A stretch of DNA of 64,000 bases from Candidatus Saccharimonadia bacterium (GCA_035544015.1 DATKIP010000076.1:192299-256298), one strand, 5' to 3'; counted from the stretch's first letter, positions 44,690-63,977 are shown. Notes: generated by a model not told the origin, from the sequence alone. Numbers and translations are program-made.

Positions 44690-44791
44690 GTTATTATTTG
44701 TCATTTTGTATCTGTAACTTAGTTCGGTCATCGGGCGAGGGAGATAGTACGACCGAACTTTGGCCCATCGTCTATCTGTTAGAATTTACTC

Positions 44792-47686: not shown

Positions 47687-47751
47687 CTTTAAAGTTTGGA
47701 CTATCTTTCTCCTCCCCAGCCAATGCACCTGTTTCTGATATAATCGTCTGC

Positions 47752-48132
47752 ATGAAGCAAATCGAACAAACCTATGTCATCAAGGCTCCTTTAGAAAAAG
47801 TCTGGCAGGCACTCACGACAGCCGAAGGCGCCGAACAATGGGGGGCTGGCCCCGCAAAATTTGATGCTACCGAAGACGGCGAATTCAGCTACTGGAACGG
47901 AGATATCCACGGTATTAATACGAAGGTCGTTTCAGAGAAGCTACTTGAGCAGGATTGGTACGGCCATGATCATCCAGAAGAAAAATACCGTGCCGTATTC
48001 TCGTTTGAGATGAAGGGTAACACTACTCTCGTTCACCTGGCTTATTCGGGTCACATCTACGATGAGCAAAGAGACATCGACGACTGGCGCGAATATTATT
48101 TTGATCCGATCAAGAGGCTGCTTGAGTCATAA
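47752..48132 (+). CDS. SRPBCC-superfamily protein (AHSA1/polyketide-cyclase-like)
   Basis: IKAPLEKVWQALTTAEGAEQW START-domain-like N-terminus. Confidence 0.6.
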   Translation: MKQIEQTYVIKAPLEKVWQALTTAEGAEQWGAGPAKFDATEDGEFSYWNGDIHGINTKVVSEKLLEQDWYGHDHPEEKYRAVFSFEMKGNTTLVHLAYSGHIYDEQRDIDDWREYYFDPIKRLLES

Positions 48133-48149
48133 TCAGGGCGCTGACACTT

Positions 48150-48683
48150 ATGAACATCCTCATCCGTCCAGAAACCACCACCGACTTCGACAGGATAGCC
48201 GACGTAGTCACCCGCGCCTTCAAGCGGCCGGGCGTGGCCGAGCTAATCAGGCATATCCGGGCCTCGGACAATTACGTGCCGGGGCTCTCGCTCGTGGCCG
48301 AACGCGACGGCCAAATCATTGGGCATATCATGCAGAGCTATGTCACGCTCGAAGATGGCAGCCGGCGGCACAAAATTCTGACGTTGTCGCCCCTAGCAGT
48401 CGACCCCCAGTTTCACAAACAAGGTATTGGCTCACAACTGGTCCGGGAAGCGATTCGCCGAGCTGACGAGCGGGGTGAATCCTTGATCGTCCTCGAAGGC
48501 CGCCCCGAGTACTACACCCGGTTCGGTTTCCGGCCTTCCTATCAGCTAGACATCGAATACCCACTACCCGACTGGGCGCCGGCGGAAGCGGGCCAGGCCC
48601 TACCGCTTTCGGGCAACAGCCCCGCACTAGCACCCAAGGGCAAGGTTGTCTACCCCGAATACTTCAAACTTGCCGAGCACTAG
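48150..48683 (+). CDS. GNAT-family N-acetyltransferase
   Basis: Acetyl-CoA motif A QGIGSQLVREAI. Confidence 0.75.
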   Translation: MNILIRPETTTDFDRIADVVTRAFKRPGVAELIRHIRASDNYVPGLSLVAERDGQIIGHIMQSYVTLEDGSRRHKILTLSPLAVDPQFHKQGIGSQLVREAIRRADERGESLIVLEGRPEYYTRFGFRPSYQLDIEYPLPDWAPAEAGQALPLSGNSPALAPKGKVVYPEYFKLAEH

Positions 48684-48773
48684 TCGCCAGGATTAAGCAA
48701 CAATGCCACACGTTTTCTCTGGCTCGCCGTGCTACGCTATAGCCGTTAAAAAACTAAAACAAAAGGAGTTCCT

Positions 48774-48983
48774 ATGTCCAACGTAAATGCCACACAAGAG
48801 GTCATCATTGTAATCGGTGATGCGAGCGGGGATGGTGGCCATTTTGTCGTGACCCCGCACGGCGTAAAACGCGTGCCCGACAATAACCCGGGGCTACGCG
48901 AAGCCTACAAAGCCATAGCCAAGAACTACGCCATCCTACAAAAGGCCGCATTGGACCAAAAGCTACCCGAACAAAACCGCTAG
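48774..48983 (+). CDS. Hypothetical small protein
   Basis: 69 aa with a GGAG RBS. Confidence 0.3.
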   Translation: MSNVNATQEVIIVIGDASGDGGHFVVTPHGVKRVPDNNPGLREAYKAIAKNYAILQKAALDQKLPEQNR

Positions 48984-49076
48984 AGTTCTGCCGCAAAAAG
49001 TTCCAGAAAATATCTTCTGGAACTTTTTATTTTGCCCACCAAGCCAGCACAATCTTCCTTTTGTTATGATAGTCGC

Positions 49077-49862
49077 ATGCACACCGAGCAAAGATTTCTG
49101 GATGACAAAGGTCGCTTGCGGCAATGGCCGTCTAGGCGTTCCGACAAATTACTGGCGGTGGCTTATTTGGCGACCAAGTTCGACTTCAAGGCCAGCTACA
49201 CTGAATCCGAAGTTAACGAGCTGCTCAAGCAATGGCATACATTCAATGATTGGCCACTTCTTAGGCGCGAGCTTTACGAACAAGGCTTCCTTGATCGCAA
49301 TACCGACGGCTCAAATTATCGCATCAAACGCCTCCAAACCTCGATGCCCGATCTCAGTCTCACAAATCCTAACATCAAAAGCGACCCAGCCATCAGCGTC
49401 GAGTGGCTTGCGGGCGAACCCGGCAAAGAGACCCTTCGGCTCATGGGTAGCACCGAGACAAACAACAAACCGTCAACCCTAAAGGCTGAAGAGCAACGTA
49501 TCCGAGAGTTTATCACATCCACGAATCAGCGAACGTGGAACCTGCACTACAGGACCAAAACAGTCGGGGCAACCTGGATTGACCTTGAGTCGAGTAAATA
49601 CCTTAAGTCTCCATCAATCCACATTATGATCGGCGATCCAAATGTGCGCGGAAAAGGCCTCGCCCAAGCCACCCTGCAGGCGGTTATCGAGCTATTGGAG
49701 AAAGAAGGCGAATACCAACATCTTCACTCAAGACACTTGGTCGAAAATACCGCTTCCGCCAAACTACTCGCAAGGGTCGGCTTCGCCAATGATGGCGACG
49801 AGTACACGGATGCCGATGGACTAGTATTCCAAAATGTTAAGCGGTCACTGCGCCATCAATAA
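49077..49862 (+). CDS. DUF2087-like N-domain fused to a GNAT acetyltransferase
   Basis: C-terminal GNAT motif RGKGLAQATLQAVIELL. ATG at 49077. Confidence 0.5.
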   Translation: MHTEQRFLDDKGRLRQWPSRRSDKLLAVAYLATKFDFKASYTESEVNELLKQWHTFNDWPLLRRELYEQGFLDRNTDGSNYRIKRLQTSMPDLSLTNPNIKSDPAISVEWLAGEPGKETLRLMGSTETNNKPSTLKAEEQRIREFITSTNQRTWNLHYRTKTVGATWIDLESSKYLKSPSIHIMIGDPNVRGKGLAQATLQAVIELLEKEGEYQHLHSRHLVENTASAKLLARVGFANDGDEYTDADGLVFQNVKRSLRHQ

Positions 49863-49993
49863 GGTCTAACATCCATTCCTAAATCTGTACTCACGGGGCC
49901 TCTTTGCCCAGCCATAAAAAAGACTGACCTAACGTCAGTCTTTTTTATTTCCGCTCCACCTCATCGGTAGATGCAAGTCGTTAAAGCCCAAGC

Positions 49994-50602
49994 CTAGTTC
50001 GCTGCCGCCGTAGCCTTGCGGAAATAGCCCCGTGTCGAAGGAATCGCGAGAAGAATGAGGATGAGTATCGAACCCAAGATCACCACAACGTTGCGCGCAT
50101 TCACCAGAGAAGATACCCAGCTAGGGTAGGCGTTAAAGGCCGCATCGACCAGCTTTTGCACATTTAGGCTCTGCAGAGCCGCATCCCCTGTGCTCTTGAA
50201 TACAGACTCCAGCGTCGAAACAACAGCTGCTTGGCTGGCCATGATCAGGAAGTTGCCAGCCAGGACGAGCGGTTGAAGGACCCAAGACAGGATCAGGCCA
50301 GCTCGCTTTCCAGCGAGGTTAAGCCAGGCCAGAGTTATCATGATCAGGGCGACGATGGTAGGGACGATGGTGGCAGCGCCGTTCTCGGTGAAACTGATAT
50401 GGTTCTGGGTCAAAAGAGCAGTCGAATGCCCCTGTCGCACCATCTCGGCGTCCACCGCCGTCTGGACTTGAGCGCCGTACATGAGGCCAATGATGGGTAT
50501 GCTCAAGAAAGCTAACCCAATCAGAGCCTGTACTATCGCCACGACAGTTACGGCTTGAGGACGGCTCCTAGAAGTTTGACGTGAATTGGTTTGTTTGCTC
50601 AT
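49994..50602 (-). CDS. Hypothetical integral membrane protein
   Basis: 202 aa, about 5 TM helices. At the edge of the low-GC island. Confidence 0.45.
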   Translation of the reverse strand: MSKQTNSRQTSRSRPQAVTVVAIVQALIGLAFLSIPIIGLMYGAQVQTAVDAEMVRQGHSTALLTQNHISFTENGAATIVPTIVALIMITLAWLNLAGKRAGLILSWVLQPLVLAGNFLIMASQAAVVSTLESVFKSTGDAALQSLNVQKLVDAAFNAYPSWVSSLVNARNVVVILGSILILILLAIPSTRGYFRKATAAAN

Positions 50603-50772
50603 GATATTTCCTTTTAGTTAGATCGTTATAAAAATAGAATCCCGCGTTTACATTAAATACCGCTTAAATAAAGCACCATTCCCCCCCCAATAACAATATA
50701 AGTCATAATACTATGACTGTCAAGGTAATCTAATGAAAACTATTCTTTTCAAGGAGATGATCGCCCACGCCG

Positions 50773-52188
50773 CTACAGCAACTCAAGCAAGTCCGTCTGG
50801 TCATAATAAGGAATCGGCCGGGCGTCATCGAAGCCAATAAACAGATTAGAAAACAGGGTATTCCGGTCTATAGTATCGCTCGTTAAATTATGAGCTTTCG
50901 ACAAGAACGTTATCGCTTTGCCATTCTGGCTAATAGAGGGATCTAGGCTGTGATTATCACTCGGTACCCCATTGTGCGATGCCCGGCTAATGAGGCGCGT
51001 GGCACCAAAGTTGGTGTAGTACAAAAAGACATCAATATTGGTGGTGTCGGCCCGAACCAAGTTGGGTGCGTAGGACGCGTAAACCACATATTGGCCATCA
51101 CCACTAATATCGGCGGCAAAGCTGTTGTCGGTACCGAGCGCCCCCTTGGTCGATTTGCTAACGAGCGTAGTAGTGCCTTTCGCGCGGTTATAGAGAAATA
51201 CATCCACTTTGTGATTGTTGTCACCGGGCACCAGGTTCGGGGCGGTCGATTCGTAGACGATGAAGTTTCCATCCGTGCTTATGACCGGTTGGGTAGAATT
51301 GCTAGCGCCAAAACCGTATAGGCCACTAGTCACGAAGATAAGATTGTTGTCCCAAAGATCGTATAAATAAATATCGGGCTGACCATTATAATCAAAGCGC
51401 GTGAGCCGTTCGTCGGTTGAAAACGCAATAAAACGACCAGTATCGTTTATGGTCGCGTCCCAAAAACCACTCTCACTAATCTGATCATCCGCATTGGTGA
51501 GCTCAATCACTCGTGTCGTCCGTCCTTCGAGGTTTCGTATAACGAGGCGGTAGCCATCCGTATTGTTTACCGTGCGATGGTAGGTCAGAAATGTCACATA
51601 CCTGCCGTCGCGGGTAATAACCGGCGCCTGGCCGCCGACGCCCGTCTGGATGGCCGGAAGCCGCCGCTTACCGTCTGAGTCAACGTTTACGGCTTGAGTA
51701 TATTTTGTTATCAGGTCATGCACGATTATGTTGGTGCAGGGGTCGGCTGACCCCAGGCAAAATTTGTCCAGGCCAGGCGCCACATCGCGCGCGGTCGTGG
51801 CATAGGCTACGAAGCGACCATCGGCCGAGATCGTCGGCACATAGCTACCGCCCGAGGCCGGCTCGCCCGCCGCATTACGACTAACGAGGATGGTTTTTTG
51901 AGTGATGCGATCGTAAGCGTATACCTGTTCCATGGCGTTATGGGGGCCACTCGTTAGGTTGCTCGACGGTGACGAGAATACCGTTACGCGGCCATCGGCA
52001 CTTACGGTGCGCGCCCGAGCTTTGTGGATGTCTTCATTGGCGCCCGCGCCAGTTTGCCCCTTGGTGGCGAGCGTTGTGGTGCTTAAGCTACTGGCACCGG
52101 CGCTCGCGAGCGGGATCGCAGCTAGGATGCCTCCTGTCATTACGGTTACGATTGCTTGCCATACCCTGGTTTTTAGTAATTTTTCCAT
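50773..52188 (-). CDS. Secreted TolB-like (PD40/WD40-like) beta-propeller protein
   Basis: Signal peptide, then at least 6 PD40-like repeats (ISADGRFVAYAT, ITRDGRYVTFLT, INDTGRFIAFST, ISTDGNFIVYES, ISGDGQYVVYAS, ISQNGKAITFLS). Confidence 0.65.
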   Translation of the reverse strand: MEKLLKTRVWQAIVTVMTGGILAAIPLASAGASSLSTTTLATKGQTGAGANEDIHKARARTVSADGRVTVFSSPSSNLTSGPHNAMEQVYAYDRITQKTILVSRNAAGEPASGGSYVPTISADGRFVAYATTARDVAPGLDKFCLGSADPCTNIIVHDLITKYTQAVNVDSDGKRRLPAIQTGVGGQAPVITRDGRYVTFLTYHRTVNNTDGYRLVIRNLEGRTTRVIELTNADDQISESGFWDATINDTGRFIAFSTDERLTRFDYNGQPDIYLYDLWDNNLIFVTSGLYGFGASNSTQPVISTDGNFIVYESTAPNLVPGDNNHKVDVFLYNRAKGTTTLVSKSTKGALGTDNSFAADISGDGQYVVYASYAPNLVRADTTNIDVFLYYTNFGATRLISRASHNGVPSDNHSLDPSISQNGKAITFLSKAHNLTSDTIDRNTLFSNLFIGFDDARPIPYYDQTDLLELL

Positions 52189-52346
52189 ACGACCCTTTGC
52201 ACATTACTTGCATGCTACTTATAAGCCAACGAGATGAATTTATGATGATACCCGGGGCAAGCATTGCTGGCACCCTCCGTCCCCACTTCATATTTCTTTA
52301 AATTTCTTATGGTATAGTCACCCCAATTAACTTTGTGAGGTTACGG

Positions 52347-52526
52347 ATGCCCAACCTTGGCGTCGGAGAACTATTAGTAATTTTGGCGATCATCTTGCTG
52401 TTGTTCGGGGGCAAGAAACTACCCGAGCTGTCGAGGAGTCTGGGCGAGGGGGTGCGTGAACTGCGCCTGGGTCTCAAGGGAGGATCAGATAAGCCTGATG
52501 AGGCAGCCAAGCGTAAGGCGAAGTAG
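52347..52526 (+). CDS. tatA: Sec-independent protein translocase TatA/E
   Basis: MPNLGVGELLVILAIILLLFGGKKLPELSRSLGEGVRELR, the canonical TatA TM plus amphipathic helix. Confidence 0.8.
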   Translation: MPNLGVGELLVILAIILLLFGGKKLPELSRSLGEGVRELRLGLKGGSDKPDEAAKRKAK

Positions 52527-52533
52527 GGACACC

Positions 52534-53439
52534 ATGCCTGCAAGTTTATCCGGGCGGCAGCCCTTCATCGAGCACCTGCATGAGCTCCGTCGACGGTTAT
52601 TCTGGTCGCTGGGGACGGTGGCGATTGGCGCGGCCGCGGGCTACCAGTTGCATCAGCAGCTGATGGATATCCTGCTTCGGCCCTATGGCCAAAAGTTGTA
52701 CTACTCATCGTTGACCGGCGGTCTCGATTTTCTGATTCGGATTTGCCTATTTTTTGGCATTCTCGTAGCCATTCCAGTGGTGACCTATAATCTGCTGCGT
52801 TTCATCGAGCCGGTCATGAAGCACGGCTTTCATGCCCGCATCCTGAAGCTTTTGGGCTGCTCCGTGGCGTTGGCAGTGGCTGGGATTATGTTTGCGTATT
52901 TTGTCTGCCTGCCGGCCGCCGTTCAGTTTTTGTCCAATTTCGGCGGAGGTCGAATCCAGGCCCTCGTATCGACCGATCAATATCTCAACTTTGTCATGAT
53001 TTACCTGGCTGGTTTCGCGGCCATCTTCCAGCTCCCGCTGATACTCCTGTTTATTAATCACGTCACGCCCTTGCCGCCGAGGACCCTCATGAAGCAACAG
53101 CGCATCTTCATCGTGGCTAGTTTTGTAGCGGCGGCGATCATCACGCCCACGCCGGATGCCGTTAATATGGCCATTATGGCGCTGCCGATGATCCTGCTTT
53201 ACCAGGGCACCATTCTCGTGATCTGGCTGCGCAACCGGGCGAGGAAGGGCCCAGTCGAGCTCGCGCCTGAGCCCGCGCCAGTGGCGGCCTCCCGCGCAGT
53301 GGGCGTACTGGATCTCACGCGGCAGGTACCAGCGCCAAGGCCGCGCCCACCCGCCAACCTGCTCGACCTACGCGCCCCCAGCTGGCCAACCTCGCCCCCA
53401 CCTTCTCATCAGCTAAATTTAAGGACAAAAGACCAATGA
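52534..53439 (+). CDS. tatC: Sec-independent protein translocase TatC
   Basis: HLHELRRRLFWSL N-terminus, 6 TM helices. ATG 8 nt after the tatA stop. Confidence 0.85.
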   Translation: MPASLSGRQPFIEHLHELRRRLFWSLGTVAIGAAAGYQLHQQLMDILLRPYGQKLYYSSLTGGLDFLIRICLFFGILVAIPVVTYNLLRFIEPVMKHGFHARILKLLGCSVALAVAGIMFAYFVCLPAAVQFLSNFGGGRIQALVSTDQYLNFVMIYLAGFAAIFQLPLILLFINHVTPLPPRTLMKQQRIFIVASFVAAAIITPTPDAVNMAIMALPMILLYQGTILVIWLRNRARKGPVELAPEPAPVAASRAVGVLDLTRQVPAPRPRPPANLLDLRAPSWPTSPPPSHQLNLRTKDQ

Positions 53440-53663
53440 CGAACATCAGCCAATCCGTTCGCGAATTATTAAAAAAGGATGTCGACCGCAAGGAATTTCT
53501 GGCTCACATCGGAGCAGCGGTCGTGGCCGTCTCGGGCATTGCGGGCATCATAAAGGCCGTGGCAGAAGCAGACGGCAAAGCCAAGCCGATCTCGGGAGGC
53601 TACGGCGCTAGTGCCTACGGGGGAGCGGCCAAACCGGCCAACGTTCAAAGGCGGTTTCTATAA
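53436..53663 (+). CDS. Hypothetical small protein with a hydrophobic core
   Basis: 75 aa. Overlaps the tatC stop. Confidence 0.3.
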   Translation: MTNISQSVRELLKKDVDRKEFLAHIGAAVVAVSGIAGIIKAVAEADGKAKPISGGYGASAYGGAAKPANVQRRFL

Positions 53664-55016
53664 CGGCTCCGGCTTATGCCTGAACGGGAGCTTCACGATA
53701 AACTCCGTACGATCGCTGCGCGGACTGAGTCTAAGGCTACCCGAAAAACTTGTTTCCACCGTCTGCTTTGCAATAAATAAGCCCAGACCCAGACCGGTTT
53801 TCTTGCTGCTATGGAATGGTTTGAACAATTGCTTTCGCTCAAGCTTGGGAATGCCCCGTCCCCAATCGCTTATGTGAATGCTCATATGCGTATCATCCCA
53901 CCGAGCCGATATATCGACGCGCCGATCATGAGAGGAGATCGCCCCTGCACCGGGATCGGGGTAGGCGTCAATCGCGTTACTCACAAGGGTTGCGATAACC
54001 TGGCCGAAACAGCTGGAGTCACCCAAGTACTCCCGCGAACCAGCCGGAGGCCGCCAGTCGATAGCAACCCCAGCATCCTTGGCTTTGTAATGCAAAAACG
54101 TCACGACTTCGGTCATCTTCCGAACCATGTCGAAGGCTTGCTCCTTGGGCTTTCCCTGCAGCCGTTCGCGCGTGCTATCCACGATGCCCTCGAGGTAAAG
54201 CAGTATTTCCTTGGCCCGGGCGAGTGTTCTCATGTGCTCTTTGTCTTGCAGATCCTCAATCTCAAGATTGAGGGCAGTCAAATGGTTGGCCAGATCGTGC
54301 AGCAAGGCAACTCCTAGCTGGCCCAGTTCGGCAAAACGATACATATGTCGCATTTCTTCTACTTGCATATGGCGCAACTGAGACGTGCGTTTTTTGACTT
54401 GCCGCTCGAGAGTATTCTTTTGAAGCAACAAAGCCGACTCCGCCCGCTTCGCCTGGTCCAGGGAGCGTTCCATGTCTCGGTTGTAGAGCCAACATACGAG
54501 CGCCAGCATGCCAAACACCACGCAGTATGTCAGGACGTCGCCAAAAGTTGATTGGTGCCGCGTCCAAGAAATATCGGGCGAGTGCCAGCCAAAGACAATC
54601 GCCACTTGCGCCCCCATGAGGACCGCACCGGCTGCAAGCGCCGCAAACAGCGAATGACGCGAGGTCAGCAAGACGCCGGCAAGCACAATAACGAGCGCAA
54701 AAATAAGTTCCCCAATCGGGGCATTTAAGCCCCAGGTCCAGATGATCCCGGTGGCTATCAAGATATAGAACGAAATGATCAAGCAGGCCGCCGCATAATG
54801 ATAATTGCGACGTGCCAGCAGCTGGGCCACGGCAATATAGAGCAGTGCCAGACAACAAACACCCATTCCCACGAGCACCTTGGGGCTGGTGAAGACTTCG
54901 TGCCCCGCCCGCACAGCCAGCCAAATCCACACCACCCCTATCCCGAAGTAGCTACCAGCCACCATGGTTTTACAAATCACTTGGATATTACGAAGCGTGT
55001 AATTCAGTGGGTACAT
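53658..55016 (-). CDS. Sensor histidine kinase
   Basis: N-terminal multi-TM sensor. H-box HDLANHLTAL. HATPase N/G boxes at the C-terminus. Confidence 0.8.
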   Translation of the reverse strand: MYPLNYTLRNIQVICKTMVAGSYFGIGVVWIWLAVRAGHEVFTSPKVLVGMGVCCLALLYIAVAQLLARRNYHYAAACLIISFYILIATGIIWTWGLNAPIGELIFALVIVLAGVLLTSRHSLFAALAAGAVLMGAQVAIVFGWHSPDISWTRHQSTFGDVLTYCVVFGMLALVCWLYNRDMERSLDQAKRAESALLLQKNTLERQVKKRTSQLRHMQVEEMRHMYRFAELGQLGVALLHDLANHLTALNLEIEDLQDKEHMRTLARAKEILLYLEGIVDSTRERLQGKPKEQAFDMVRKMTEVVTFLHYKAKDAGVAIDWRPPAGSREYLGDSSCFGQVIATLVSNAIDAYPDPGAGAISSHDRRVDISARWDDTHMSIHISDWGRGIPKLERKQLFKPFHSSKKTGLGLGLFIAKQTVETSFSGSLRLSPRSDRTEFIVKLPFRHKPEPL

Positions 55017-55067
55017 GCTTTCCTAGTAGCCATGAATGACCATATTGCAACGTAAACGCTCCGTTTA

Positions 55068-55745
55068 CTATTTGTCATCAACCATATAGCCAATACCGTA
55101 GGCGGTTTTAATGAGCGATCCCCCAAAAGGACGGTCCACCTTGTCGCGAAGGTTCTTGATATGAACATCGACAGTGTTGTTCCATCCCTCGGTGCCGGCT
55201 TCCCACACATGCTCCAGAATCATCGACCGGGTGAGCGCGCGGCCCTTATTCGCGACCAAGTACTCGAGCACATCAAACTCTTTGCGGCGCAGCGGAATGG
55301 TTACACCCGAGCGCGATACATGGCGGCGGGTAATATTAACGGTGAGATCACTCACGCCGACAATTTTCTCCTCATGTAGTTCGGTGCCTCGGCGCAACAA
55401 CGCGGCAATGTGCGCCTTTAAAACCCCTCCGTTAAATGGCTTTGTTAGGTAGTCGTCTGCACCACAATTAAGGAGTTGGATCGAAGTGAGGGGGTCCTTC
55501 TCGACCGTTAGGACGAGGATAGGAGCAGTAATTTTCAGGCTACGCAGTTCACGACAGACATCCACCCCGCTCATGTCCGGCAACCCAACATCGAGAAGAA
55601 TGAGGCTGTACTGGACTGCGCAGGCACTTTCAACGCCCTCACGACCCGTGTGTACGGAGTCAACTACGTAGTGAGCATAAAGAAGCTTTCTTACGCTGGC
55701 AACAAGCAACTGATTGTCATCAATATAGAGGATTTTCATTATCAA
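55068..55745 (-). CDS. OmpR-family response regulator
   Basis: Receiver (ILYIDDN...LILLDVGLPDMSG) plus a winged-helix DNA-binding domain (VHIKNLRDKV...GIGY). Confidence 0.85.
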   Translation of the reverse strand: MIMKILYIDDNQLLVASVRKLLYAHYVVDSVHTGREGVESACAVQYSLILLDVGLPDMSGVDVCRELRSLKITAPILVLTVEKDPLTSIQLLNCGADDYLTKPFNGGVLKAHIAALLRRGTELHEEKIVGVSDLTVNITRRHVSRSGVTIPLRRKEFDVLEYLVANKGRALTRSMILEHVWEAGTEGWNNTVDVHIKNLRDKVDRPFGGSLIKTAYGIGYMVDDK

Positions 55746-55941
55746 AAATAATTAATTATCTATAAAAGAAAAATACTGAGAACTTATTAAGATGCTATGA
55801 ACTTTTGCGCAAAAACGTGGGGCCGGAATCAACGGTCCCACGGGGCCCAAAAGTGATTTTGGCGATATGTCCAGGAATTCAGACTGAGTTAATCACTAGT
55901 CCATACACTACCGCTATTAGAACTTAAACAAGGATCGTAGA

Positions 55942-56391
55942 ATGAAAAAAATAATGGCTGGATTATTAGCGGCCGTAATCGTGTCGGTAGGTGCAGCATC
56001 GGGCGGCGCCCATGCAGCTGGTACCCCGCCTCAAACCGACGTCACCGGAGTAATCACCGAAAATAGCATAGCGGTGGCCGGTGCGACAGTTACCGTGACC
56101 TGTAACGGTAACGCACAGGTCGACACCACCACGGACGCCCATGGCTCGTATCTCGTAGTTTTCCCCGTGGCTGACTGCGCTTTCGGTGATACCGTCAAGG
56201 TTGTAGCCAAGAAGGGCGGCAAGAGCGGTGTCTCGAGCGGCACGGTTACCGGAATCACCACGAAGCTCAATCTCGCTATTGTGAACGTCTCAATCCCTGA
56301 GTTTGGCCTACTGGGATCGCTCATGGCCGGTACTGCCGGGATCGGCATGCTCGCCTACATGCGCCGCCGCCAACAAGACTTTGAAGCGTAG
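55942..56391 (+). CDS. Small secreted protein with a transthyretin/CarboxypepD_reg-like core and a C-terminal PEFG-hydrophobic-RRR sorting signal (putative exosortase substrate, paralog 1)
   Basis: Signal peptide. Core GVITENSIAVAGATVTVTCNG...TDAHGSYLVVF...DCAFG. C-terminus IPEFGLLGSLMAGTAGIGMLAYMRRRQ. Confidence 0.6.
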   Translation: MKKIMAGLLAAVIVSVGAASGGAHAAGTPPQTDVTGVITENSIAVAGATVTVTCNGNAQVDTTTDAHGSYLVVFPVADCAFGDTVKVVAKKGGKSGVSSGTVTGITTKLNLAIVNVSIPEFGLLGSLMAGTAGIGMLAYMRRRQQDFEA

Positions 56392-56414
56392 CCATCGCTA
56401 GGGTTTTAGAGCCA

Positions 56415-57377
56415 GTGCGCCGACTAAAAACTATCAACCCGCTGCTTCAGCGGGTGATAGTTTTTTCGGTGCTATTCGTTGCCATCTCGGGAGCCATCGG
56501 GCCACGCATTATTAGCGGCGGGATTCTCTTCAGCGGCGGCTTTGCCGTGTATGGCGGAGCCGGCAAGACACTGCTCTTTAGTCTCATCAGCTTCGGGTTG
56601 CTCGTGCGCCGCCGCCGCCTCCTCGTTGCGTTGCAGCCATGGCGCCCCGCCGATCTTGGTTGGATCGTGGCCTCAGCGGCGGCATTGGCCTTGGCATGGG
56701 CAAACATTGCCCGCTTGCTGGCTGGCCAACATCAAGTCCAGGCGATTGCGCTCGCCCACGCCGGCCTCATCTTGGGCATCGCCTTGCTGGCCGTTGGCTG
56801 TCTGGGGGCAAAAAATCTCCGGTCGCTAGGGTCCATATACCGGCGCGAGATCGTGGCCTCGCTGGCTCTCGGCGCCTTATTTTACCTATTTTTGCTGGCG
56901 GTCTACGCCCTCTGGCGTCCGCTGGCCTCCGTGGTGCTCCTTTGTGTCCGAGGTCTGCTCGCCCTAGGCGGCCTTCACGCCGTCATGGTACCGCCCAACA
57001 GCCTCATCTTCGACAAATTCGGCATCACCGTCGCCGAATATTGCTCCGGTATAGAATCCATTGCACTCTTTACGGGCCTCTACGCCATCGTGGGGCTGCT
57101 CGATTGGGCCCGCCTCAATCGCTTCCGCTATTTCGCCATCTTTCCGTTCGCGCTGCTGGCGCTGTTTGGGCTCAACATCCTGCGCGTTTACGGGCTCATC
57201 TTGGCAGGCTACTACATCAATCCCGAGCTTGCTTTCAGCCTGTTCCACACCTACGCCGGCATGGTGTTCTTCATGCTCTATAGCGCCGTTTTTTGGGCCG
57301 TAGCCTACAAATATTTGATTACGACATCGGCGCCTCTTGACCATAAACACGTAATCGCGAAAGGTAACCCATTATGA
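56415..57377 (+). CDS. Exosortase/archaeosortase-family polytopic membrane protein (putative transpeptidase)
   Basis: About 8 TM helices. Conserved AEYCSGIES (Cys) and a LNILR Arg motif 47 residues later, as in EpsH/ArtA-family sortases. Translationally coupled to the paralog genes. Confidence 0.6.
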   Translation: MRRLKTINPLLQRVIVFSVLFVAISGAIGPRIISGGILFSGGFAVYGGAGKTLLFSLISFGLLVRRRRLLVALQPWRPADLGWIVASAAALALAWANIARLLAGQHQVQAIALAHAGLILGIALLAVGCLGAKNLRSLGSIYRREIVASLALGALFYLFLLAVYALWRPLASVVLLCVRGLLALGGLHAVMVPPNSLIFDKFGITVAEYCSGIESIALFTGLYAIVGLLDWARLNRFRYFAIFPFALLALFGLNILRVYGLILAGYYINPELAFSLFHTYAGMVFFMLYSAVFWAVAYKYLITTSAPLDHKHVIAKGNPL

Positions 57378-57757
57378 AAAAGCCCATCATAATCATCAGC
57401 CTAGCCGCCGCAGCCCTGGCCGTCACGGGGGTAACGGCCGCCCGAGCCGCCACTGCTCCGGCCGGCGAAACCGACATCACCGGCATCGTGACGGAGTTTG
57501 GTGTCCCGAGGCAGCGAAACGCGACCTTTGTCGAGTGCAAAGGGCTCCAAAAGTTCGACGATTCCGACGCCAAGGGGGCCTATCTCGTTACCTTTACGGC
57601 CGCGGAATGCCCAGCCGGATCGTCGGTTACGGTCGTAGCCGCCAACGGCAGCCGCCCCGGCCGCGCCTCGGGTACCGTGCGGGGCATTACCACCAAGCTC
57701 AAGACGGCCGCCGTGAACGTGCAAATACCCGGTCCCGAACCGGCGCAGAACCATTAA
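57374..57757 (+). pseudogene. Paralog 2 of the sorting-signal protein family, C-terminal signal disrupted (frameshift/decay)
   Basis: Signal peptide and core conserved (FVECKG...AAECPAGS) but ends ...VQIPGPEPAQNH*. The hydrophobic + YTRRR tail is encoded out of frame at 57791-57906. Confidence 0.45.
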
Positions 57758-57906
57758 GCATGGAAGGCTCGGATGATGATAACGAAAGTAATAAAAACCA
57801 CGTTCTTCGCAGCCGGACTACTAGCCGTCAGTTTGACGCCCTGTCTGGCAAACGCCACCTACACTCGCCGCCGCACCGCCCAAACAGCCCCTCTCGGAGG
57901 TCAATC

Positions 57907-58383
57907 ATGAAACGATTCATCGCGAGCTTGAGTCTGCTGGCTGCCGCGGCGGCAGTTGGTCTGGCGCCGAGCCCAGCCCGGGCTGCCACTCCGGCCGAGG
58001 TGAAAATATCCGGGGTCGTCACCGAGCACGGCCAGCCTGCCGCCGGAGTACAGGTCCTCGGAGATTGCGGGCATTTCGCGAAGTATGGCCAACATCTTAC
58101 CGGTGTCGACGGCGCCTATCAGATTACCTTCACCGTCGATCAATGCCCCATTGGCACTCGTATCAGAGTTTTTGGGTTTACCTCCGACTACCAAAAACGA
58201 GCCGAGGGGGAGGCCGCCGCGCAGCCGGAGGTCGTCATCGACATGGTTCTCACGAGCGTCATCTCCGTGCCCGAATACGGCTGGTTGGGCGGCATTCTAG
58301 TGGGTGGGACTGGATTGGGCGCCCTTGCCTACACCCGCCGCCGGGCCCAATACAGCCCACGAAAGGCAGCCCCACATGCCTAA
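57907..58383 (+). CDS. Sorting-signal family paralog 3 (VPEYG-TM-RRR C-terminus)
   Basis: MKRFIASLSLLAAAAAVGLAPSPARA signal. Core with Cys pair (GDCGH...DQCPIG). C-terminus VPEYGWLGGILVGGTGLGALAYTRRRAQ. Confidence 0.6.
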   Translation: MKRFIASLSLLAAAAAVGLAPSPARAATPAEVKISGVVTEHGQPAAGVQVLGDCGHFAKYGQHLTGVDGAYQITFTVDQCPIGTRIRVFGFTSDYQKRAEGEAAAQPEVVIDMVLTSVISVPEYGWLGGILVGGTGLGALAYTRRRAQYSPRKAAPHA

Positions 58384-58819
58384 AAGCATATTGGGCGTTT
58401 TCATAACCCTCGGCTTAACCGCAGCCGTATTTGCGCCGCAGCCGGCCCACGCCACGTTTGATCCCGTTTACGACGTGCAGGGCTTCGTGCACGACGAGAC
58501 CGGTAAGCCCGTTGAGGGCGCGGACGTTTACATCGTTTGCGGTGGCGTAGAAGTAGAACTCACCAGATCGGACGTGGACGGTTCGTACCATTCCAATATG
58601 GACCAATGCCAGGTTGACTGGACCATCCAGGTAGACGTCCGCGCCCCCGGCGCCCGCCTTGGTAGTGCCTCCAGCATCGGGAGCCCGCACATGCACCTCG
58701 ATGTTGTCGTCAGAGCAAACACTTCCATCCCCGAGTACGGCTGGCTCGGCGGCCTCATGGCCGGGGGTGCCGGCGCTGGCGCCATCGCCTACGCCCGTCG
58801 CCAGTGCGCGCGTCCTTAA
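58376..58819 (+). CDS. Sorting-signal family paralog 4
   Basis: Signal peptide. Cys pair (IVCGG...DQCQVD). C-terminus IPEYGWLGGLMAGGAGAGAIAYARRQ. 8-nt overlap with paralog 3. Confidence 0.6.
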   Translation: MPKSILGVFITLGLTAAVFAPQPAHATFDPVYDVQGFVHDETGKPVEGADVYIVCGGVEVELTRSDVDGSYHSNMDQCQVDWTIQVDVRAPGARLGSASSIGSPHMHLDVVVRANTSIPEYGWLGGLMAGGAGAGAIAYARRQCARP

Positions 58820-58865
58820 CCCCGTCTGCTCGGAATATCATTATTTTTACGAAAGGTAGGACCAA

Positions 58866-59342
58866 ATGAAGCGACGAACAATAATAAAATCAAACATAAT
58901 AACCAGTACCCTTTTGGCGGCAGCGGTGGCAATAGCCAGCTTCGCGCCGCGGCCGGCCGACGCCGCCGTCAACGATTCAGTTCAGCTTACCGGGCTCGTC
59001 ACGATTCAGGGCCACCCCATGCCCGGGCTCGAAGTTGACATCGAATGCTGGAGCACGGGGTTCCAGGCTCACGCCGTCACCAACGGCAGCGGCATCTATT
59101 CCCACTTCGCGACCGAAGCGTTCTGCCCCCTTGGCTCGCAGCTGAAAGTACGGTTTGAGTCAGTCGGCTTGAGCGGGTATGTCGGCTTCAACTACAACAC
59201 GATTCAGAAGGTGACGGTGACAGATATTAGTCTGGTGCGCAAAAATGTTGTCCCGGAGTACGGTTGGCTGGGCGGGTTGCTAGCTGGTAGCGCCGGGATT
59301 GGTGCGATGGCCATAATGCGCCGCCGGTACGTCAGCTTATGA
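58866..59342 (+). CDS. Sorting-signal family paralog 5
   Basis: Signal peptide. Cys pair (IECWS...EAFCPLG). C-terminus VPEYGWLGGLLAGSAGIGAMAIMRRRY. Confidence 0.6.
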   Translation: MKRRTIIKSNIITSTLLAAAVAIASFAPRPADAAVNDSVQLTGLVTIQGHPMPGLEVDIECWSTGFQAHAVTNGSGIYSHFATEAFCPLGSQLKVRFESVGLSGYVGFNYNTIQKVTVTDISLVRKNVVPEYGWLGGLLAGSAGIGAMAIMRRRYVSL

Positions 59343-59803
59343 AAAAGCCACTGTCAATAGTATCTCTGGCCGCTGTTTCCGCCGCAGCCCTCTTGGCCGC
59401 CCAGCCAACCCAAGCCGCCGGTACCAGCACCATCGCTGGCCCGGTCATCAAGCAGCGCCAGCCGGTAGTTGGCGTCGTGGTCTCAGTGTACTGCGGCCGG
59501 ATGGAAGAGCACCACCATGTGGCCGATAGCGCACCCACCGACGCTACCGGCCACTATCGTGTCACCATCACCGAGGCCCAGTGCCCGCGCGGCCATTACG
59601 CGCAGGTATTCGCCGGCACGAGCTTCGAATGGGTCGGCCTATCCGCGGGCAATCTAGCCGAAAACAACCGTTTCGATATTTACCTCGAACATCGTACCTC
59701 AATACCCGAATACAGCTGGTTGGCCGGCTTGCTCGCCGACAGTGCAGGCTTTGGCGCAATTGCCATGATGCGCCGGCGCCAGGTGGCTCACCGAGAACAA
59801 TAA
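59339..59803 (+). CDS. Sorting-signal family paralog 6
   Basis: Signal peptide. Cys pair (VYCGR...AQCPRG). C-terminus IPEYSWLAGLLADSAGFGAIAMMRRRQ. ATGA overlap with paralog 5. Confidence 0.6.
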   Translation: MKKPLSIVSLAAVSAAALLAAQPTQAAGTSTIAGPVIKQRQPVVGVVVSVYCGRMEEHHHVADSAPTDATGHYRVTITEAQCPRGHYAQVFAGTSFEWVGLSAGNLAENNRFDIYLEHRTSIPEYSWLAGLLADSAGFGAIAMMRRRQVAHREQ

Positions 59804-59830
59804 GCATCACCACGAAAGGCAGGCCCCAGA

Positions 59831-60280
59831 ATGAACAAGATAGTAGCAGGAATATCCCTCATCGCAGCCGTAATCGCCGTAAGTTTGGCACCGCACGCCG
59901 CCCATGCCGCGGCCCAGTACCAATTCGAAGGCTACGTTTACGACTCCGACGGCCAACCCGTACCCCAGGCGCCGGTCACCGTAGACTGCTATACGCACGG
60001 GGGGATAACTCCCATCCTTGGCACCACCAATGTCTTCGGTCACTTCATCATAGACTACTCCACCGACGTGTGTCCCGATGGCTCGGGCATCACCGTGTCG
60101 GCCAAAACCGCCGATGAATTTGGCTCTACCGACGCGATGGCATTCGGCGGAACCTTCATCAATCTCGATCTCCACAAAGTCATCTCCGTGCCAGAGTACG
60201 GCGGCCTCGCCGGCGCACTGGCCGCCGGAGCCGGCATCGGCGCCCTTGCCTACACCCGTCGCCGCCACGCGCAGCTATGA
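59831..60280 (+). CDS. Sorting-signal family paralog 7
   Basis: Signal peptide. Cys pair (VDCYTHGG...DVCPDG). C-terminus VPEYGGLAGALAAGAGIGALAYTRRRH. Confidence 0.6.
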   Translation: MNKIVAGISLIAAVIAVSLAPHAAHAAAQYQFEGYVYDSDGQPVPQAPVTVDCYTHGGITPILGTTNVFGHFIIDYSTDVCPDGSGITVSAKTADEFGSTDAMAFGGTFINLDLHKVISVPEYGGLAGALAAGAGIGALAYTRRRHAQL

Positions 60281-61560
60281 CCGCCCAGCCCAAAACCATC
60301 CTCATCACCCACGTCTACTCCAGCGACAACAAGGGCGACGCCGCGCTCACCAGCGTCTTAATCCAAGACCTCAAGCGGAAATTCCCGAGCGCCACTCTTA
60401 CCATCCTCAAGCTTGAATCCGTCGAGCCGGGCGGGCGGTTTGAGGGCGTGCCCGAAAAACCCAGCTTCATGTATTACGTGGCCAATCGATACCGCCACCC
60501 GCTCCTCAAGCTCGCCTACGCCCTCGCCATGATGGCCGCCACTTTGGCGTGGGCGGCCTGGTATCGCCTCACGGGCTGGCACGGCTATTTGCCGCCGCAT
60601 CTGCGCCACATCGCTCGGCTCTACGAGCAGGCCGACCTCATCGTGCCGGTGGGCGGTGGCTACATCCGCAGCCGCCAGGGGCTCGTGATGCGCTTCAATG
60701 TCCCGCTGCTGCTCCATCCGTTGCTGTTTGGCTACCTGTTGCGCAAACCCACCGTGCTGTATTCGCAGTCCATCGGCCCATTTCACGGCCGGCTCGACGA
60801 GCGATTGGTGGCCTTTGTGCTCCGGCGCATGACGCTCATTCTCCTGCGCGAGGACACCTCCGCCGCCCTATTAAAAGATTTAGGCGTCACGCGCAACGTT
60901 AAACGCGCCATCGACTCCGGCTTTCTGCTCACAAGCTCGCACAAAGCAGATATTCGCAACCAATATCACATTCCAGCCGACCGGCTGTTGGTGGGCGTCA
61001 CGGTACGGTCGTGGCTAAAGGGGGAGGCCCAACGCACCTACGAAGCCGCCGTCGCGGCCGCCCTAGACGACCTCCTCGAAACCTCGGCCGCGCATGTCAT
61101 ATTCATCCCCCAGGTCACGGCCAACAAAGGCGACGACGATCGCGTGGTCAGCCATCGAGTGCGCGACCTCATGCATCATCCCGCGGCCACCACCGTCGTC
61201 GATGGCACACCCGATCACCACCGCATCAAAGCCCTGTACGACAACCTCGATATCCTCCTCGGCACGCGCTTCCACTCTGTGATCTTCTCGCTTACCTCCT
61301 ACGTACCCGTGCTAGCCATCGAGTACGAGCACAAAACCAGCGGCATTATGCACGACCTCAAACTCGATCGCTGGGTCATAAAGATCGAAGACGTCACGTC
61401 GGCCAAGCTTATCGAGCAGTTGCACAGGCTCGTGCGAGAACAGCCCCATTATCGCGCCCATCTGCGCAAATACCTGCCGCAATATATCTTGCGGGCCGAG
61501 AAAACCGTCGACATGCTCGCAGATAGCTACTTTGCCGCGGCTCAGTATCGCGCAAAATAA
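60277..61560 (+). CDS. Polysaccharide pyruvyl transferase family protein (CsaB/WcaK-like)
   Basis: N-terminal ILITHVYSSDNKGDAAL and C-terminal GTRFHSVIFSLTSYVPVLAIEYEHK regions typical of PS_pyruv_trans. ATGA overlap with paralog 7. Confidence 0.7.
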   Translation: MTAQPKTILITHVYSSDNKGDAALTSVLIQDLKRKFPSATLTILKLESVEPGGRFEGVPEKPSFMYYVANRYRHPLLKLAYALAMMAATLAWAAWYRLTGWHGYLPPHLRHIARLYEQADLIVPVGGGYIRSRQGLVMRFNVPLLLHPLLFGYLLRKPTVLYSQSIGPFHGRLDERLVAFVLRRMTLILLREDTSAALLKDLGVTRNVKRAIDSGFLLTSSHKADIRNQYHIPADRLLVGVTVRSWLKGEAQRTYEAAVAAALDDLLETSAAHVIFIPQVTANKGDDDRVVSHRVRDLMHHPAATTVVDGTPDHHRIKALYDNLDILLGTRFHSVIFSLTSYVPVLAIEYEHKTSGIMHDLKLDRWVIKIEDVTSAKLIEQLHRLVREQPHYRAHLRKYLPQYILRAEKTVDMLADSYFAAAQYRAK

Positions 61561-61578
61561 GCATAATGGAGATAAACC

Positions 61579-62091
61579 ATGACCCAGCCTATCCAAAATC
61601 GACTAGCAACCCATGTTGCCATCCTGCGCCTGGCGTTTGGCGCCATTTGGGCCGTCAACGCCGCCCTGAAATGGATGCCTTCGTTCGCGAGCAGCTTTCT
61701 CGATTCCGTTAACGGTGGCGCCCAAGGCCAGCCGGCTTGGTTGGGCCCATGGTTTCATTTTTGGAGCCAAGTTTTAGGCAGCCAGCCCCAGGCTTTTGCC
61801 AGCCTGGTGGCGGTCCTCGAGAGCGCGATAGCAATAGCGTTGATTACTGGCTTTGCCCGGCGAACCATCTATCTTGGCGCCGCCGCCATGAGCCTGCTTA
61901 TCTGGGCGATTCCTCAGGGATTTGGCGGCCCCTACACGAGCGCCTCGACCGACATCGGAGCCGGGATCGTCTACGCGATGGTCTTCTTTGCCCTTTATGG
62001 GCTAGAGAGGCTGGCAACACCCGCGCGCTGGGCGGTCGATAATCTCATCATCCGCAAGCTGCCATGGTGGAGCGTCGTCGCCAGCCCTTAG
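61579..62091 (+). CDS. DoxX-like integral membrane protein
   Basis: 170 aa, 4 TM helices. LRLAFGAIWAVNAALKW resembles DoxX. Confidence 0.4.
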   Translation: MTQPIQNRLATHVAILRLAFGAIWAVNAALKWMPSFASSFLDSVNGGAQGQPAWLGPWFHFWSQVLGSQPQAFASLVAVLESAIAIALITGFARRTIYLGAAAMSLLIWAIPQGFGGPYTSASTDIGAGIVYAMVFFALYGLERLATPARWAVDNLIIRKLPWWSVVASP

Positions 62092-63977
62092 CCGATCACC
62101 GAATAGTCAAAATTCAAAATCGACCCGCCCTGCAGCGCCGCGCGCGTAGAGATCGTAAACCCCGTAGTGCTGCGTGCCGACACGTACAGCGCCGCCGCCA
62201 CCGCCGAGTGATCGGTAATCATAATGCTCAGCGGCGTCGCCAGAAACGCGCGCGAAAACGCCACTGTGCAAATCACCCCCGCCGCGGTGGGGGAGGGCCG
62301 CACCGCGGCCGAAATATTGCCGGCGATGTCGCGCACCTGTATCCCGGGGTTGGCGTACGTCACTTGCGCGCCCGCCGTCACGCGCGCCGGCGTCCCCACC
62401 CCCAACGGCCGGCCGTTCGAATCAATCGCCAATCCCTGGATGTTGTACGTCTCATCCTGAAACTCCATCAGCCGATTCGTTGCTACGCTCGAGGGCCGCA
62501 CAATCGCCAGCCCCTTGTCCCCGTCGGCCGCCGCGCGGATCAGCATCGATATATTCGTGACCGGAGTAGAATTTATCCCCACATACCCCTTCGTGGCCTC
62601 GATCTGAAATTTCCCGGCCGCAAACCGTGCCGCCCCACTAGCCCCCACCACGCGCCACTTTTCGGTCGCATACGCATCGGAGAACCCGGCCGTATCCACG
62701 CCGTTGGGCACTATCAGCGCCGGCCGCGTGGAGTTGGCATCCACCTTCACTAAGTCTTTGCCCGTGACGTGATCCGTCACGCGAAACGACGCCGGTGCAT
62801 GAATCGGCAGCTCCAGCCCCATATGCGGGTCGCCTTCGAGCATCGTGGTGGCCTCGCCCATGATATCCTCGCCGCGGTTGATCCAAATGCACGCCACCAT
62901 CACCTCGGTGGCTGCCGGCTCAATGAAGAATGTGGCTTGTGCCGGGTCTTCGGTGGGGTAAAACGTACTGACCTCGTGATACATGTGTGGAGTGCCGCCC
63001 AGAACATGCGTCAGGCTGTTCGCCAGCCCCGTAGCGAAGCCCCATTGCACGTACACGTTTGTCATAAAGATTTGCGTGCCCGAATCCTCAATGGCGTTAA
63101 TGGGCGTGCTGTACCCAGTATCAAAGGCCATCATCGCCATATACAGTTGACTCACATAGACGACTGTGCAGCCGTCCGCTATCTGAAACGCCGCCCCGGC
63201 CAGCACCGACGATTCCATTTTGCACGCCACCATGAAAATGCCATTCAATTTGCTTGCCGATCCGTTGGCCGCACCATCGAGCCGCAACGCTCCGTTGCGA
63301 AAACCCTCCCAGCGACACGTTACAAAGTGGATCTGATTCGTATTATCAAGGCTATATCCAAAGCTTCCCACGGGTAGACTATTGCGCAGGAGCGTAGCCG
63401 GTGCGCTTGCGCTGCCACAATCCTCCCAGGCGCAGCTTTCAAAGCGCGTATCCCAGACCTCCGCCAGGTCCACTGCTGTACCCTGGCAGTGAATAAAATT
63501 AAGATCACGGAAAATAAAGTTATCAGCGTAGTACGAACGAACCAAGAGCCCCGGCAACCCGCCACCGTCGATCATCAAGTTGGTGAGCGAGCAATATCGC
63601 AAATGCCCAATCGTGGTCGCCGTGCCGCTGATATCAATGAGCGGCGCCGTGCCGCTCAAGCGTACCAGCCGCGTCCCAAACCGCGCCGCCCCCGACAGCG
63701 CCGTGCCTTTATTGCTAATCTTGAGCCCCCGGATCATAAACACCCCCCGCGGGAATTCCACCAGACCCCCGCCCACCGCCGCGTTTATCGCAGCCTGGAT
63801 GGCGTTGGTGTCGTCGGTCACCCCGTCGCCGACCGCGCCATAATCCGCCACGTTAATCGCCAGCTGCTGCGATGGCGGCAGCGCCACATCTCCCGCCGAC
63901 TTCCACACCAGGTCGTTGCCATTGTTGGATAGGACCAGATTGTTCAGGTTGGCTCCGGTTGGATTGGTGGTGCGCAT
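62088..63977 (-). CDS. Secreted right-handed beta-helix protein (pectate-lyase-superfamily / glycanase-like)
   Basis: ADYGAVGDGVTDDTNAIQAAINAA N-terminal motif of the Pectate_lyase_3/GH28-like beta-helix, then a long Gly/Asn-rich repeat region. ATG at 63977. Confidence 0.7.
   Translation of the reverse strand: MRTTNPTGANLNNLVLSNNGNDLVWKSAGDVALPPSQQLAINVADYGAVGDGVTDDTNAIQAAINAAVGGGLVEFPRGVFMIRGLKISNKGTALSGAARFGTRLVRLSGTAPLIDISGTATTIGHLRYCSLTNLMIDGGGLPGLLVRSYYADNFIFRDLNFIHCQGTAVDLAEVWDTRFESCAWEDCGSASAPATLLRNSLPVGSFGYSLDNTNQIHFVTCRWEGFRNGALRLDGAANGSASKLNGIFMVACKMESSVLAGAAFQIADGCTVVYVSQLYMAMMAFDTGYSTPINAIEDSGTQIFMTNVYVQWGFATGLANSLTHVLGGTPHMYHEVSTFYPTEDPAQATFFIEPAATEVMVACIWINRGEDIMGEATTMLEGDPHMGLELPIHAPASFRVTDHVTGKDLVKVDANSTRPALIVPNGVDTAGFSDAYATEKWRVVGASGAARFAAGKFQIEATKGYVGINSTPVTNISMLIRAAADGDKGLAIVRPSSVATNRLMEFQDETYNIQGLAIDSNGRPLGVGTPARVTAGAQVTYANPGIQVRDIAGNISAAVRPSPTAAGVICTVAFSRAFLATPLSIMITDHSAVAAALYVSARSTTGFTISTRAALQGGSILNFDYSVIG

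Follow-up and report, generated by a model that had tools for sequence, protein, structure and literature searches.

Exosortases are widespread enzymes whose chemistry is unsettled, both as to what is attached to their substrates and as to whether this happens in one step, and what is known of them rests mostly on a single archaeal enzyme and a few genetic studies in Gram-negative bacteria. Members of the family are polytopic proteins with ∼8 transmembrane (TM) helices, deeply embedded in the membrane, in which a Cys, an Arg and a His form the suspected catalytic triad, and their substrates carry a tripartite C-terminal signal consisting of a short motif, a hydrophobic segment of TM length and a terminal cluster of Arg residues. 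The PEP-CTERM/exosortase systems (XrtA, EpsH) of Gram-negative bacteria pair one enzyme with many substrates, and Haft has described 'dedicated' one-to-one systems in which enzyme and target are encoded by consecutive genes. Archaeosortase A, which acts on the PGF-CTERM signal of the Haloferax volcanii S-layer glycoprotein, is the sole family member for which experiments support helix removal coupled to lipid attachment. Here we analyze a 64,000-nucleotide stretch of DNA (the window) from a soil-dwelling bacterium that belongs to the ultrasmall Saccharimonadia (TM7) (GCA_035544015.1 DATKIP010000076.1:192299-256298), where ten closely packed genes on the + strand, positions 55942-62091, probably include a dedicated exosortase-type protein-sorting system of Candidatus Saccharimonadia that would work by export, recognition, helix removal and attachment. 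The system belongs to a known kind, of which it forms a conserved but uncatalogued subclass, and it introduces no new principle. Its components in the window are as follows.

55942..56391, + strand: P1, the conserved cognate substrate, 149 residues; signal peptide, beta-sandwich with two invariant Cys residues, tail IPEFG-TM-RRR
56415..57377, + strand: exosortase/archaeosortase-family protein of an unnamed subfamily, 320 residues (PF09721, TIGR04178)
56429..56466, + strand: RNA hairpin followed by a U-run, terminator- or attenuator-like, within codons 5-17 of the sortase gene
57374..57910, + strand: P2, a decayed paralog; open reading frame (ORF) 57374-57757 of 127 residues lacking PE-x-G, with a TM-YTRRR remnant extending to 57910
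57907..58383, + strand: P3, paralog of 158 residues, tail VPEYGWLGG-TM-RRR
58376..58819, + strand: P4, paralog of 147 residues, tail IPEYGWLGG-TM-RRQ; 8-nucleotide overlap with P3
58866..59342, + strand: P5, paralog of 158 residues, tail VPEYGWLGG-TM-RRR
59339..59803, + strand: P6, paralog of 154 residues, tail IPEYSWLAG-TM-RRR; ATGA overlap with P5
59831..60280, + strand: P7, paralog of 149 residues, tail VPEYGGLAG-TM-RRR

The 320-residue polytopic product of 56415-57377 had been called exosortase-like in a preliminary description of the window, and model searches bear this out, with scores of 61.8 bits for PF09721 (Exosortase_EpsH; cutoff 25.7) and 56.9 bits for TIGR04178, the NCBIfam exosortase/archaeosortase signature (cutoff 23). 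The Cys of its CSG motif (AEYCSGIES, Cys210) and the Arg of its NxxR motif (LNILR, Arg257), both noted at the outset, prove to be conserved on alignment, and together with His278 (SLFHTYAG) they are invariant across 19 sequences aligned with homologs at 54-67% identity; all three residues fall within the TIGR04178 match, residues 205-297. An AlphaFold2 (AF2) model contains nine long helices with which the hydropathy peaks are concordant. A search of PDB sequences with the sortase profile returned no match and a Foldseek comparison of the model with the PDB gave nothing below E=4. There are 338 homologs of the enzyme in the database, and those that are named are listed as 'archaeosortase/exosortase family protein' from metagenome-assembled genomes (MAGs) of Candidatus Saccharimonadia or Patescibacteria. 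The window lies on a 320-kb contig that comes from a MAG of this kind. The enzyme misses the cutoffs of the named subfamilies XrtE (72.6 bits, cutoff 150), XrtA (23.7, 208), XrtV (26, 313), XrtX (24.5, 170), XrtO (8.1, 250), ArtC (30.2, 100) and ArtA (15.6, 75), as well as that of the general EpsH model (34.9, 105.55).

The six intact paralogs (147-158 residues) have the signal peptide and [IV]PE[YF]G-TM-RRR tail originally reported, with P6 (IPEYS) and P4 (RRQ) as variants; every one ends in [IV]PE[YF][GS], a Gly/Ala-rich hydrophobic stretch and the basic cluster, and thus has the general architecture of a tripartite signal. Pairwise identity among the six is 64% in the tail vs 24% in the core. 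Across 120 P1 orthologs the motif never varies at P, E or G, and the residue between E and G is Y in 102, F in 14, W in 2, M in 1 and L in 1; the Arg cluster begins at +22 from the motif Pro in 112 of these sequences and, within the helix, A at +10 and G at +14 and +16 are nearly invariant. The contrast between tail and core identities, the invariance of P, E and G and the fixed spacing to RRR establish that the shared tail does not result from chance. P1 tails of close relatives read NVS-IPE[YF]G and those of distant loci (45-50% sortase identity) VPEFG, VPELG, VPEMG or LPELG, giving a family-wide motif [VIL]-P-E-[FYLM]-G of which VPEFG is the most frequent form. Position 4 is F, Y, L or M, rarely W, I or H, and Thr occurs there in none of ∼240 sequences. 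We considered N-V-S ahead of the motif as an N-glycosylation sequon and dropped the idea because its Ser is replaced in 27 of the 120 orthologs.

An exhaustive profile search retrieved 694 substrate representatives (of 50%-identity clusters) at E <=1e-10, including large repeat proteins that share the beta-sandwich alone. Among the best 150 of the 694, 125 are small, and 118 of these 125 carry [VIL]PE[FYLM][GS]-TM-basic. Six proteins of 230-260 residues (P0245, P0253, P0262, P0271, P0291 and P0324) give two profile matches, the second reaching the C-terminus, and appear to be two-domain forms with the same kind of tail. A tail-only profile, which is short and compositionally biased, found a single match in a database of 5.8 billion proteins, the 68-residue fragment P0241. 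NCBI and JGI name the substrate orthologs 'hypothetical protein'.

That the tails belong to no catalogued class, as had been proposed, holds for NCBIfam 20.0 and Pfam, the comparison with CTERM models included: none of the CTERM models of NCBIfam 20.0 reached its cutoff on whole proteins or on isolated tails, those of distant orthologs among them, the HMMER filters possibly hiding weaker matches. The best scores of the tails are 13.9 bits for VPEID (cutoff 33), 13.7 for VPLPA (25.35), 10.8 for PEFG (25) and 10 for PEP (16). The suggestion that PE[YF]G itself is an unlisted signal stands only in part. A PEFG-CTERM class has already been named for Thaumarchaeota, so that the four letters are not new, and the family motif is broader than PE[YF]G; nevertheless the PEFG model misses the bacterial class.

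Comparison with the described systems places the locus more precisely. With PEP-CTERM/exosortase it shares the enzyme family, the Cys/Arg/His triad, an association with polysaccharide loci and a tripartite tail that opens with P-E. It differs in its scores against the XrtA, EpsH and PEP_CTERM models, in having at position 3, counted from the Pro, an aromatic or aliphatic residue followed by Gly where PEP has Pro, in being one-to-one rather than one-to-many, and in its host, a member of the Patescibacteria. This lineage is not known to have an outer membrane. The best-scoring named subfamily for the enzyme is XrtE (E 3e-20), whose VPEID-CTERM substrates also have V-P-E followed by a hydrophobic residue; scores for enzyme and tail are nonetheless below the respective cutoffs, position 5 is Gly here and Asp there, and because the match is confined to positions 61-302 of the 516 in the XrtE profile the C-terminal protease half of 'exosortase E/protease' is absent from the 320-residue protein. 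PEF-CTERM/archaeosortase C and the thaumarchaeal PEFG-CTERM have in common with the present system the letters P-E-F-G, found in P1 and in VPEFG, and the tripartite tail. These are archaeal classes, however, the ArtC and PEFG-CTERM scores are low, the similarity to PEFG-CTERM is limited to the motif, and the proteins described here also accept Y, L and M at position 3 from the Pro and have a Gly/Ala-rich helix at a fixed 22-residue spacing. Archaeosortase A/PGF-CTERM supplies the mechanistic template that we adopt below, although the ArtA score is far from its cutoff, motif and host domain differ, and a large S-layer glycoprotein takes the place of a small beta-sandwich. Finally, the LPXTG/sortase A systems of Gram-positive bacteria are functional analogues, with a tripartite tail, Cys/Arg/His chemistry, a monoderm envelope and a helix plus Arg cluster, but the enzyme fold is unrelated, the motif here is without Thr and the neighborhood has no classical sortase gene.

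In order to examine how strictly enzyme and substrate are paired, loci were collected in both directions. GTDB species representatives scanned with the sortase alignment yielded 21 genome loci, and in 21/21 a P1-like gene of ∼150 codons lies directly upstream of the sortase. For the reverse test 41 metagenome loci were chosen via P1 with an ortholog-only alignment, of which the 40 with at least 150 nucleotides of downstream sequence are assessable; the sortase gene starts 25-90 nucleotides past the P1 stop in 40/40. Loss of the motif in orthologous loci had been named as grounds for abandoning the assignment, and it is instead retained in both sets. A hidden Markov model (HMM) built from the C-termini, as the preliminary description had advised, was run over the window and the related loci and found no further carrier in the 64 kb or in any related locus. 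Strict two-way adjacency and the lack of another tail carrier define a dedicated enzyme-target pair in Haft's sense rather than a many-substrate system.

Substrate genes are usually few: of the 15 long metagenome loci, 13 have one and 2 have two, and the genome loci have between one and three. The array of six intact genes plus one is the largest expansion seen among the loci examined, and the seven-fold tandem arrangement, while real, is peculiar to this genome, the family norm being one or two copies. P1 is the ancestral, family-wide partner and P2-P7 are a lineage-specific tandem expansion. Three loci (L006, L009 and L020) place a Saccharimonadia-type sortase/substrate pair on contigs of Verrucomicrobiia, Acidoferrum and Sulfotelmatobacter MAGs, assignments that most likely reflect faulty binning and not horizontal transfer.

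The AF2 model of P1 shows a helical signal peptide, then an all-beta sandwich with predicted local distance difference test (pLDDT) values above 90 over residues 31-115, a core of ∼85-95 residues, and a C-terminal helix from residue 121. Foldseek relates the model to CnaB2 domains, transthyretin-like HIU hydrolases, CueP and CarboxypepD_reg-like teneurin domains at E ∼1e-4. These matches agree with the CarboxypepD_reg/transthyretin Pfam matches of the paralogs, all of which are below threshold (at most 27.9 bits, for P4, vs 32.3), and the transthyretin/carboxypeptidase-regulatory core originally suggested is thus supported by structure comparison and not by sequence scores.

We propose that the small proteins would be exported by their N-terminal Sec signal peptides and that the Gly/Ala-rich C-terminal helix would then retain them in the membrane, its RRR cluster facing the cytoplasm. 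The adjacent exosortase, using Cys210, Arg257 and His278, would recognize [VIL]-P-E-[FYLM]-G where the helix meets the outside. If archaeosortase A is a guide, the enzyme would then remove the helix and leave the beta-sandwich attached to an acceptor in the cell envelope, which might be a lipid or a product of the neighboring glycan pathway.

A further element lies inside the sortase gene itself. Starting 38 nucleotides past the P1 stop, 56429-56443 pairs with 56449-56462 in a 15-base pair stem closed by the loop GCTTC and followed by a U-run, with a folding energy of -38.1 kcal/mol (z -7.4); in this window an extended stem also spans the GTG start of the sortase. Over 20 aligned loci 13 consensus pairs are 97.3% paired, nine of them with compensatory double changes, values that were reached in 0/500 shuffles, and sliding the partners abolishes the signal. 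Distant loci have a hairpin and T-run at the equivalent site with quite different stem sequences, and a hairpin of -17 kcal/mol or lower is found within 120 nucleotides of the P1 stop in 58/62 loci vs 20/124 control segments. The same nucleotides are constrained by the code, since the Leu codons of the loop vary synonymously and there are no indels, and the peptide encoded by the hairpin, K-T-I-T-P-L-L-W-R-V-I-V-F, opens the first TM helix. G-U pairs indicate that the structure forms in the sense-strand RNA, and a palindromic protein-binding site was rejected, since the stems show covariation in place of sequence conservation and the G-U pairs fit only sense-strand RNA. An Rfam scan of 55000-63000 gave no match, and the hairpin thus corresponds to none of the catalogued RNAs.

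With its G+C-rich stem-loop, U-run and covariation the element at 56429-56466 has the attributes of an intrinsic terminator, and it is probably a terminator or attenuator, or else a block to translation. Any of these past P1 would leave P1 in excess over the processing enzyme; in the mechanism proposed above, the hairpin and U-run would end or attenuate most transcripts after P1, giving abundant substrate and scarce enzyme. Two NCBI gene models (P0023 and P0106, 291 and 297 residues) begin the sortase past the hairpin and are hence without the first TM helix, and annotation of the start is inconsistent across the family. A start downstream of the hairpin is unlikely given the synonymous variation of the loop codons (CTN/TTG Leu), the lack of indels and the loss of the first TM helix that it would entail.

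Several points weigh against this picture. Cleavage, its site, the acceptor and surface display are inferred, as are cleavage and attachment in close relatives; hydropathy is compatible with either membrane side for Cys210; and in the AF2 model the P1 motif begins ∼3 residues past the last beta-strand, so that there is no linker and the enzyme would have to act beside a folded domain. Moreover, the TM-plus-basic portion of the tails resembles LPXTG-type anchors. As for the hairpin, the 20-kb region around the operon is not enriched in canonical terminators, and the element, lying as it does within a translated region, may affect translation or the stability of the mRNA instead of termination.

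The closeness of domain and motif is what would be expected of a simple tail-anchored surface protein. In such a reading the tails would anchor the proteins in the membrane for good, uncleaved, and the neighboring exosortase homolog would have another target, for example a glycan-pathway component, or would be only a scaffold. The Gly/Ala-rich helix could then be a helix-helix oligomerization motif, and cleavage is, after all, something we infer for this system. A P-E-x-G that stays invariant beside the membrane while the cores fall to 24% identity is not normally seen in simple anchors, however, and strict two-way adjacency with a Cys/Arg/His exosortase is the pattern that defines every other sorting class, so that we regard this explanation as improbable. 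Slightly less credible again is that the enzyme cuts the tag but releases the domains, or joins them into a fiber, instead of anchoring them to lipid or glycan. One-step transpeptidation is undecided even for archaeosortase A, CnaB-type beta-sandwiches are typical of pilin and stalk modules, and several paralogs could serve as major and minor subunits; against this, only one substrate gene is present in most genomes, we identified no pilin-type motif with Lys in the proteins, and published work on PEP-CTERM and PGF-CTERM favors surface retention. It is very hard to believe that the tails are variant LPXTG-type signals ([LVI]-P-x-x-G) processed by a classical sortase whose gene lies elsewhere, with peptidoglycan as the point of attachment, for although L/V/I, P and G occupy the L, P and G positions of LPXTG, peptidoglycan linkage is expected for a Gram-positive-type envelope and isolated tails score 17.5 bits with TIGR01167 (LPXTG-type; cutoff 15.9) and 25.9 with Microco_LAVTG (cutoff 27), the LPXTG-type model matches span model positions 12-34 alone, that is the helix and basic cluster with the LPXTG motif excluded, position 4 is never Thr, the third position is always Glu, a feature shared with the PEP, PEF and VPEID classes, and neither the window nor the 21 loci contain a convincing ORF with a TLxTC signature, the conserved neighbor being the exosortase.

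The dedicated exosortase system is embedded in a conserved neighborhood, which in the window comprises the following genes.

53658..55016, - strand: sensor histidine kinase (HATPase_c, Pfam), transcribed away from the operon
55068..55745, - strand: OmpR-type response regulator (Response_reg and Trans_reg_C, Pfam), divergent neighbor and candidate regulator
60277..61560, + strand: polysaccharide pyruvyl transferase (PF04230, 112.2 bits); ATGA overlap with P7
61579..62091, + strand: DoxX-like small membrane protein (PF07681, 20.0 bits, sub-cutoff), probably outside the system
62088..63977, - strand: pectate-lyase-fold (right-handed beta-helix) protein (PF12708, 59.8 bits), heading a tandem set that converges on the operon

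Closer relatives share a module of divergent histidine kinase and response regulator genes, then P1, sortase, zero to five extra paralogs and pyruvyl transferase, with convergent pectate-lyase-fold genes. The kinase and regulator are kept together upstream in these relatives, and the response regulator precedes P1 in 6 genome loci and in most metagenome loci with sufficient upstream sequence. The pyruvyl transferase follows the sortase or paralogs in 14/21 genome loci (directly in 10) and in most long metagenome loci; its PF04230 score is well above the cutoff of 25.3 and below those of the equivalog models for CsaB (106.3, cutoff 213.1) and WcaK (97.7, cutoff 399, and 87.3, cutoff 727.1). Distant loci are flanked by Wzx-type flippases, GT2, GT4, pyruvyl transferase, polysaccharide deacetylase, UDP-glucose dehydrogenase, a GalE-type epimerase and GH5, and in loci with sortase identity as low as 45% the pair is still flanked by glycan-biosynthesis and pectate-lyase-fold genes. 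This setting recalls the link to exopolysaccharides from which exosortases took their name. Conservation of the glycan genes as neighbors thus upholds the genomic side of the coupling to a pyruvylated glycan that had been suggested, the support coming from the neighborhood alone. The pectate-lyase-fold genes occur in three tandem copies in locus L001 (15674-20963) and in one to four in related loci. Their products of 630-690 residues show a hint of an endosialidase-like N-terminus and lack an obvious signal peptide, and the genes are co-conserved with the pyruvyl transferase in many loci.

A bolder reading is that the exosortase moves small beta-sandwich proteins covalently onto a pyruvylated surface polysaccharide or membrane lipid and so builds the outer coat of a candidate phyla radiation (CPR)/Patescibacteria cell that has a cell wall, the in-gene terminator setting the stoichiometry and the seven-gene array diversifying the coat for interactions with hosts or phages. 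We think this reading rather doubtful. If true, Patescibacteria would gain their first described exosortase system, which would also be a minimal one-enzyme, one-substrate model for the exosortase reaction.

The preliminary description had linked all ten genes into one translationally coupled operon. The overlaps it quoted (ATGA at 57374, 59339 and 60277, and 8 nucleotides at 58376) are all present, and they join sortase to P2, P3 to P4, P5 to P6 and P7 to the pyruvyl transferase; the covarying hairpin, however, sets P1 apart. The DoxX-like gene probably does not belong to the system, since its PF07681 score is under the cutoff of 23.6 and no homolog was found in any of the 62 other loci. The count of seven paralogs of 149-158 residues likewise reduces to six intact ones, because P2 is decayed. 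Its ORF (57374-57757) reads ...NVQIPGPEPAQNH and ends in an in-frame TAA, the motif being replaced by IPGPEPAQNH; past the TAA the same frame (57773-57910) reads ...FFAAGLLAVSLTPCLANATYTRRR, a degenerate helix followed by YTRRR. The lost motif, in-frame stop and readable remnant of the tail mark P2 as a decaying copy, which is either a pseudogene or a secreted, unanchored variant. A unit CGAAAGG[CT]AG is repeated 9-13 nucleotides before the starts of P2, P4, P5 and P7 (57350-57373, 58352-58375, 58842-58865 and 59807-59830); apparently the ribosome-binding site was duplicated together with the paralog gene, and the shared unit fits tandem duplication.

What sets the locus apart are its host lineage, the one-to-one design, the local seven-gene expansion and the terminator-like hairpin within coding sequence. 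It places an exosortase system in Saccharimonadia, ultrasmall bacteria with cultured relatives that live attached to host bacteria and with surface proteins that are little characterized, and one enzyme with one small folded substrate in adjacent genes is close to the simplest enzyme-substrate pair that could be had for bench work. The hairpin illustrates cleanly how an RNA fold and an encoded peptide can both constrain one run of bases. Since the substrate family is large and all of its named members are hypothetical, two HMMs, one for the sortase subfamily and one for the tail, would improve the annotation of many MAGs. The searchable literature holds no paper that joins exosortase or archaeosortase with Saccharibacteria or Patescibacteria; exosortase and candidate phyla radiation are mentioned together solely in a virus study (preprint and published version), each term once.

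The remaining genes of the window are those of an ordinary chromosome, among them LeuRS, SMC, TrmD, MurA-like, glutamine synthetase and TatC. The G+C content is ∼0.50-0.56 across 44000-56000 vs ∼0.58-0.69 elsewhere, and is again 0.60 in the sortase operon; the low-G+C segment contains GNAT acetyltransferases, small unknown genes, TatA/TatC and the histidine kinase/response regulator pair. Overlapping the TatC stop on the + strand (53436-53663) is an ORF of 75 residues that reads ...DRKEFLAHIGAAVVAVSGIAG..., with a degenerate twin-arginine-like signal. A copy with 42% identity adjoins TatC in locus L003, and the product may be a small Tat substrate or a Tat accessory protein.

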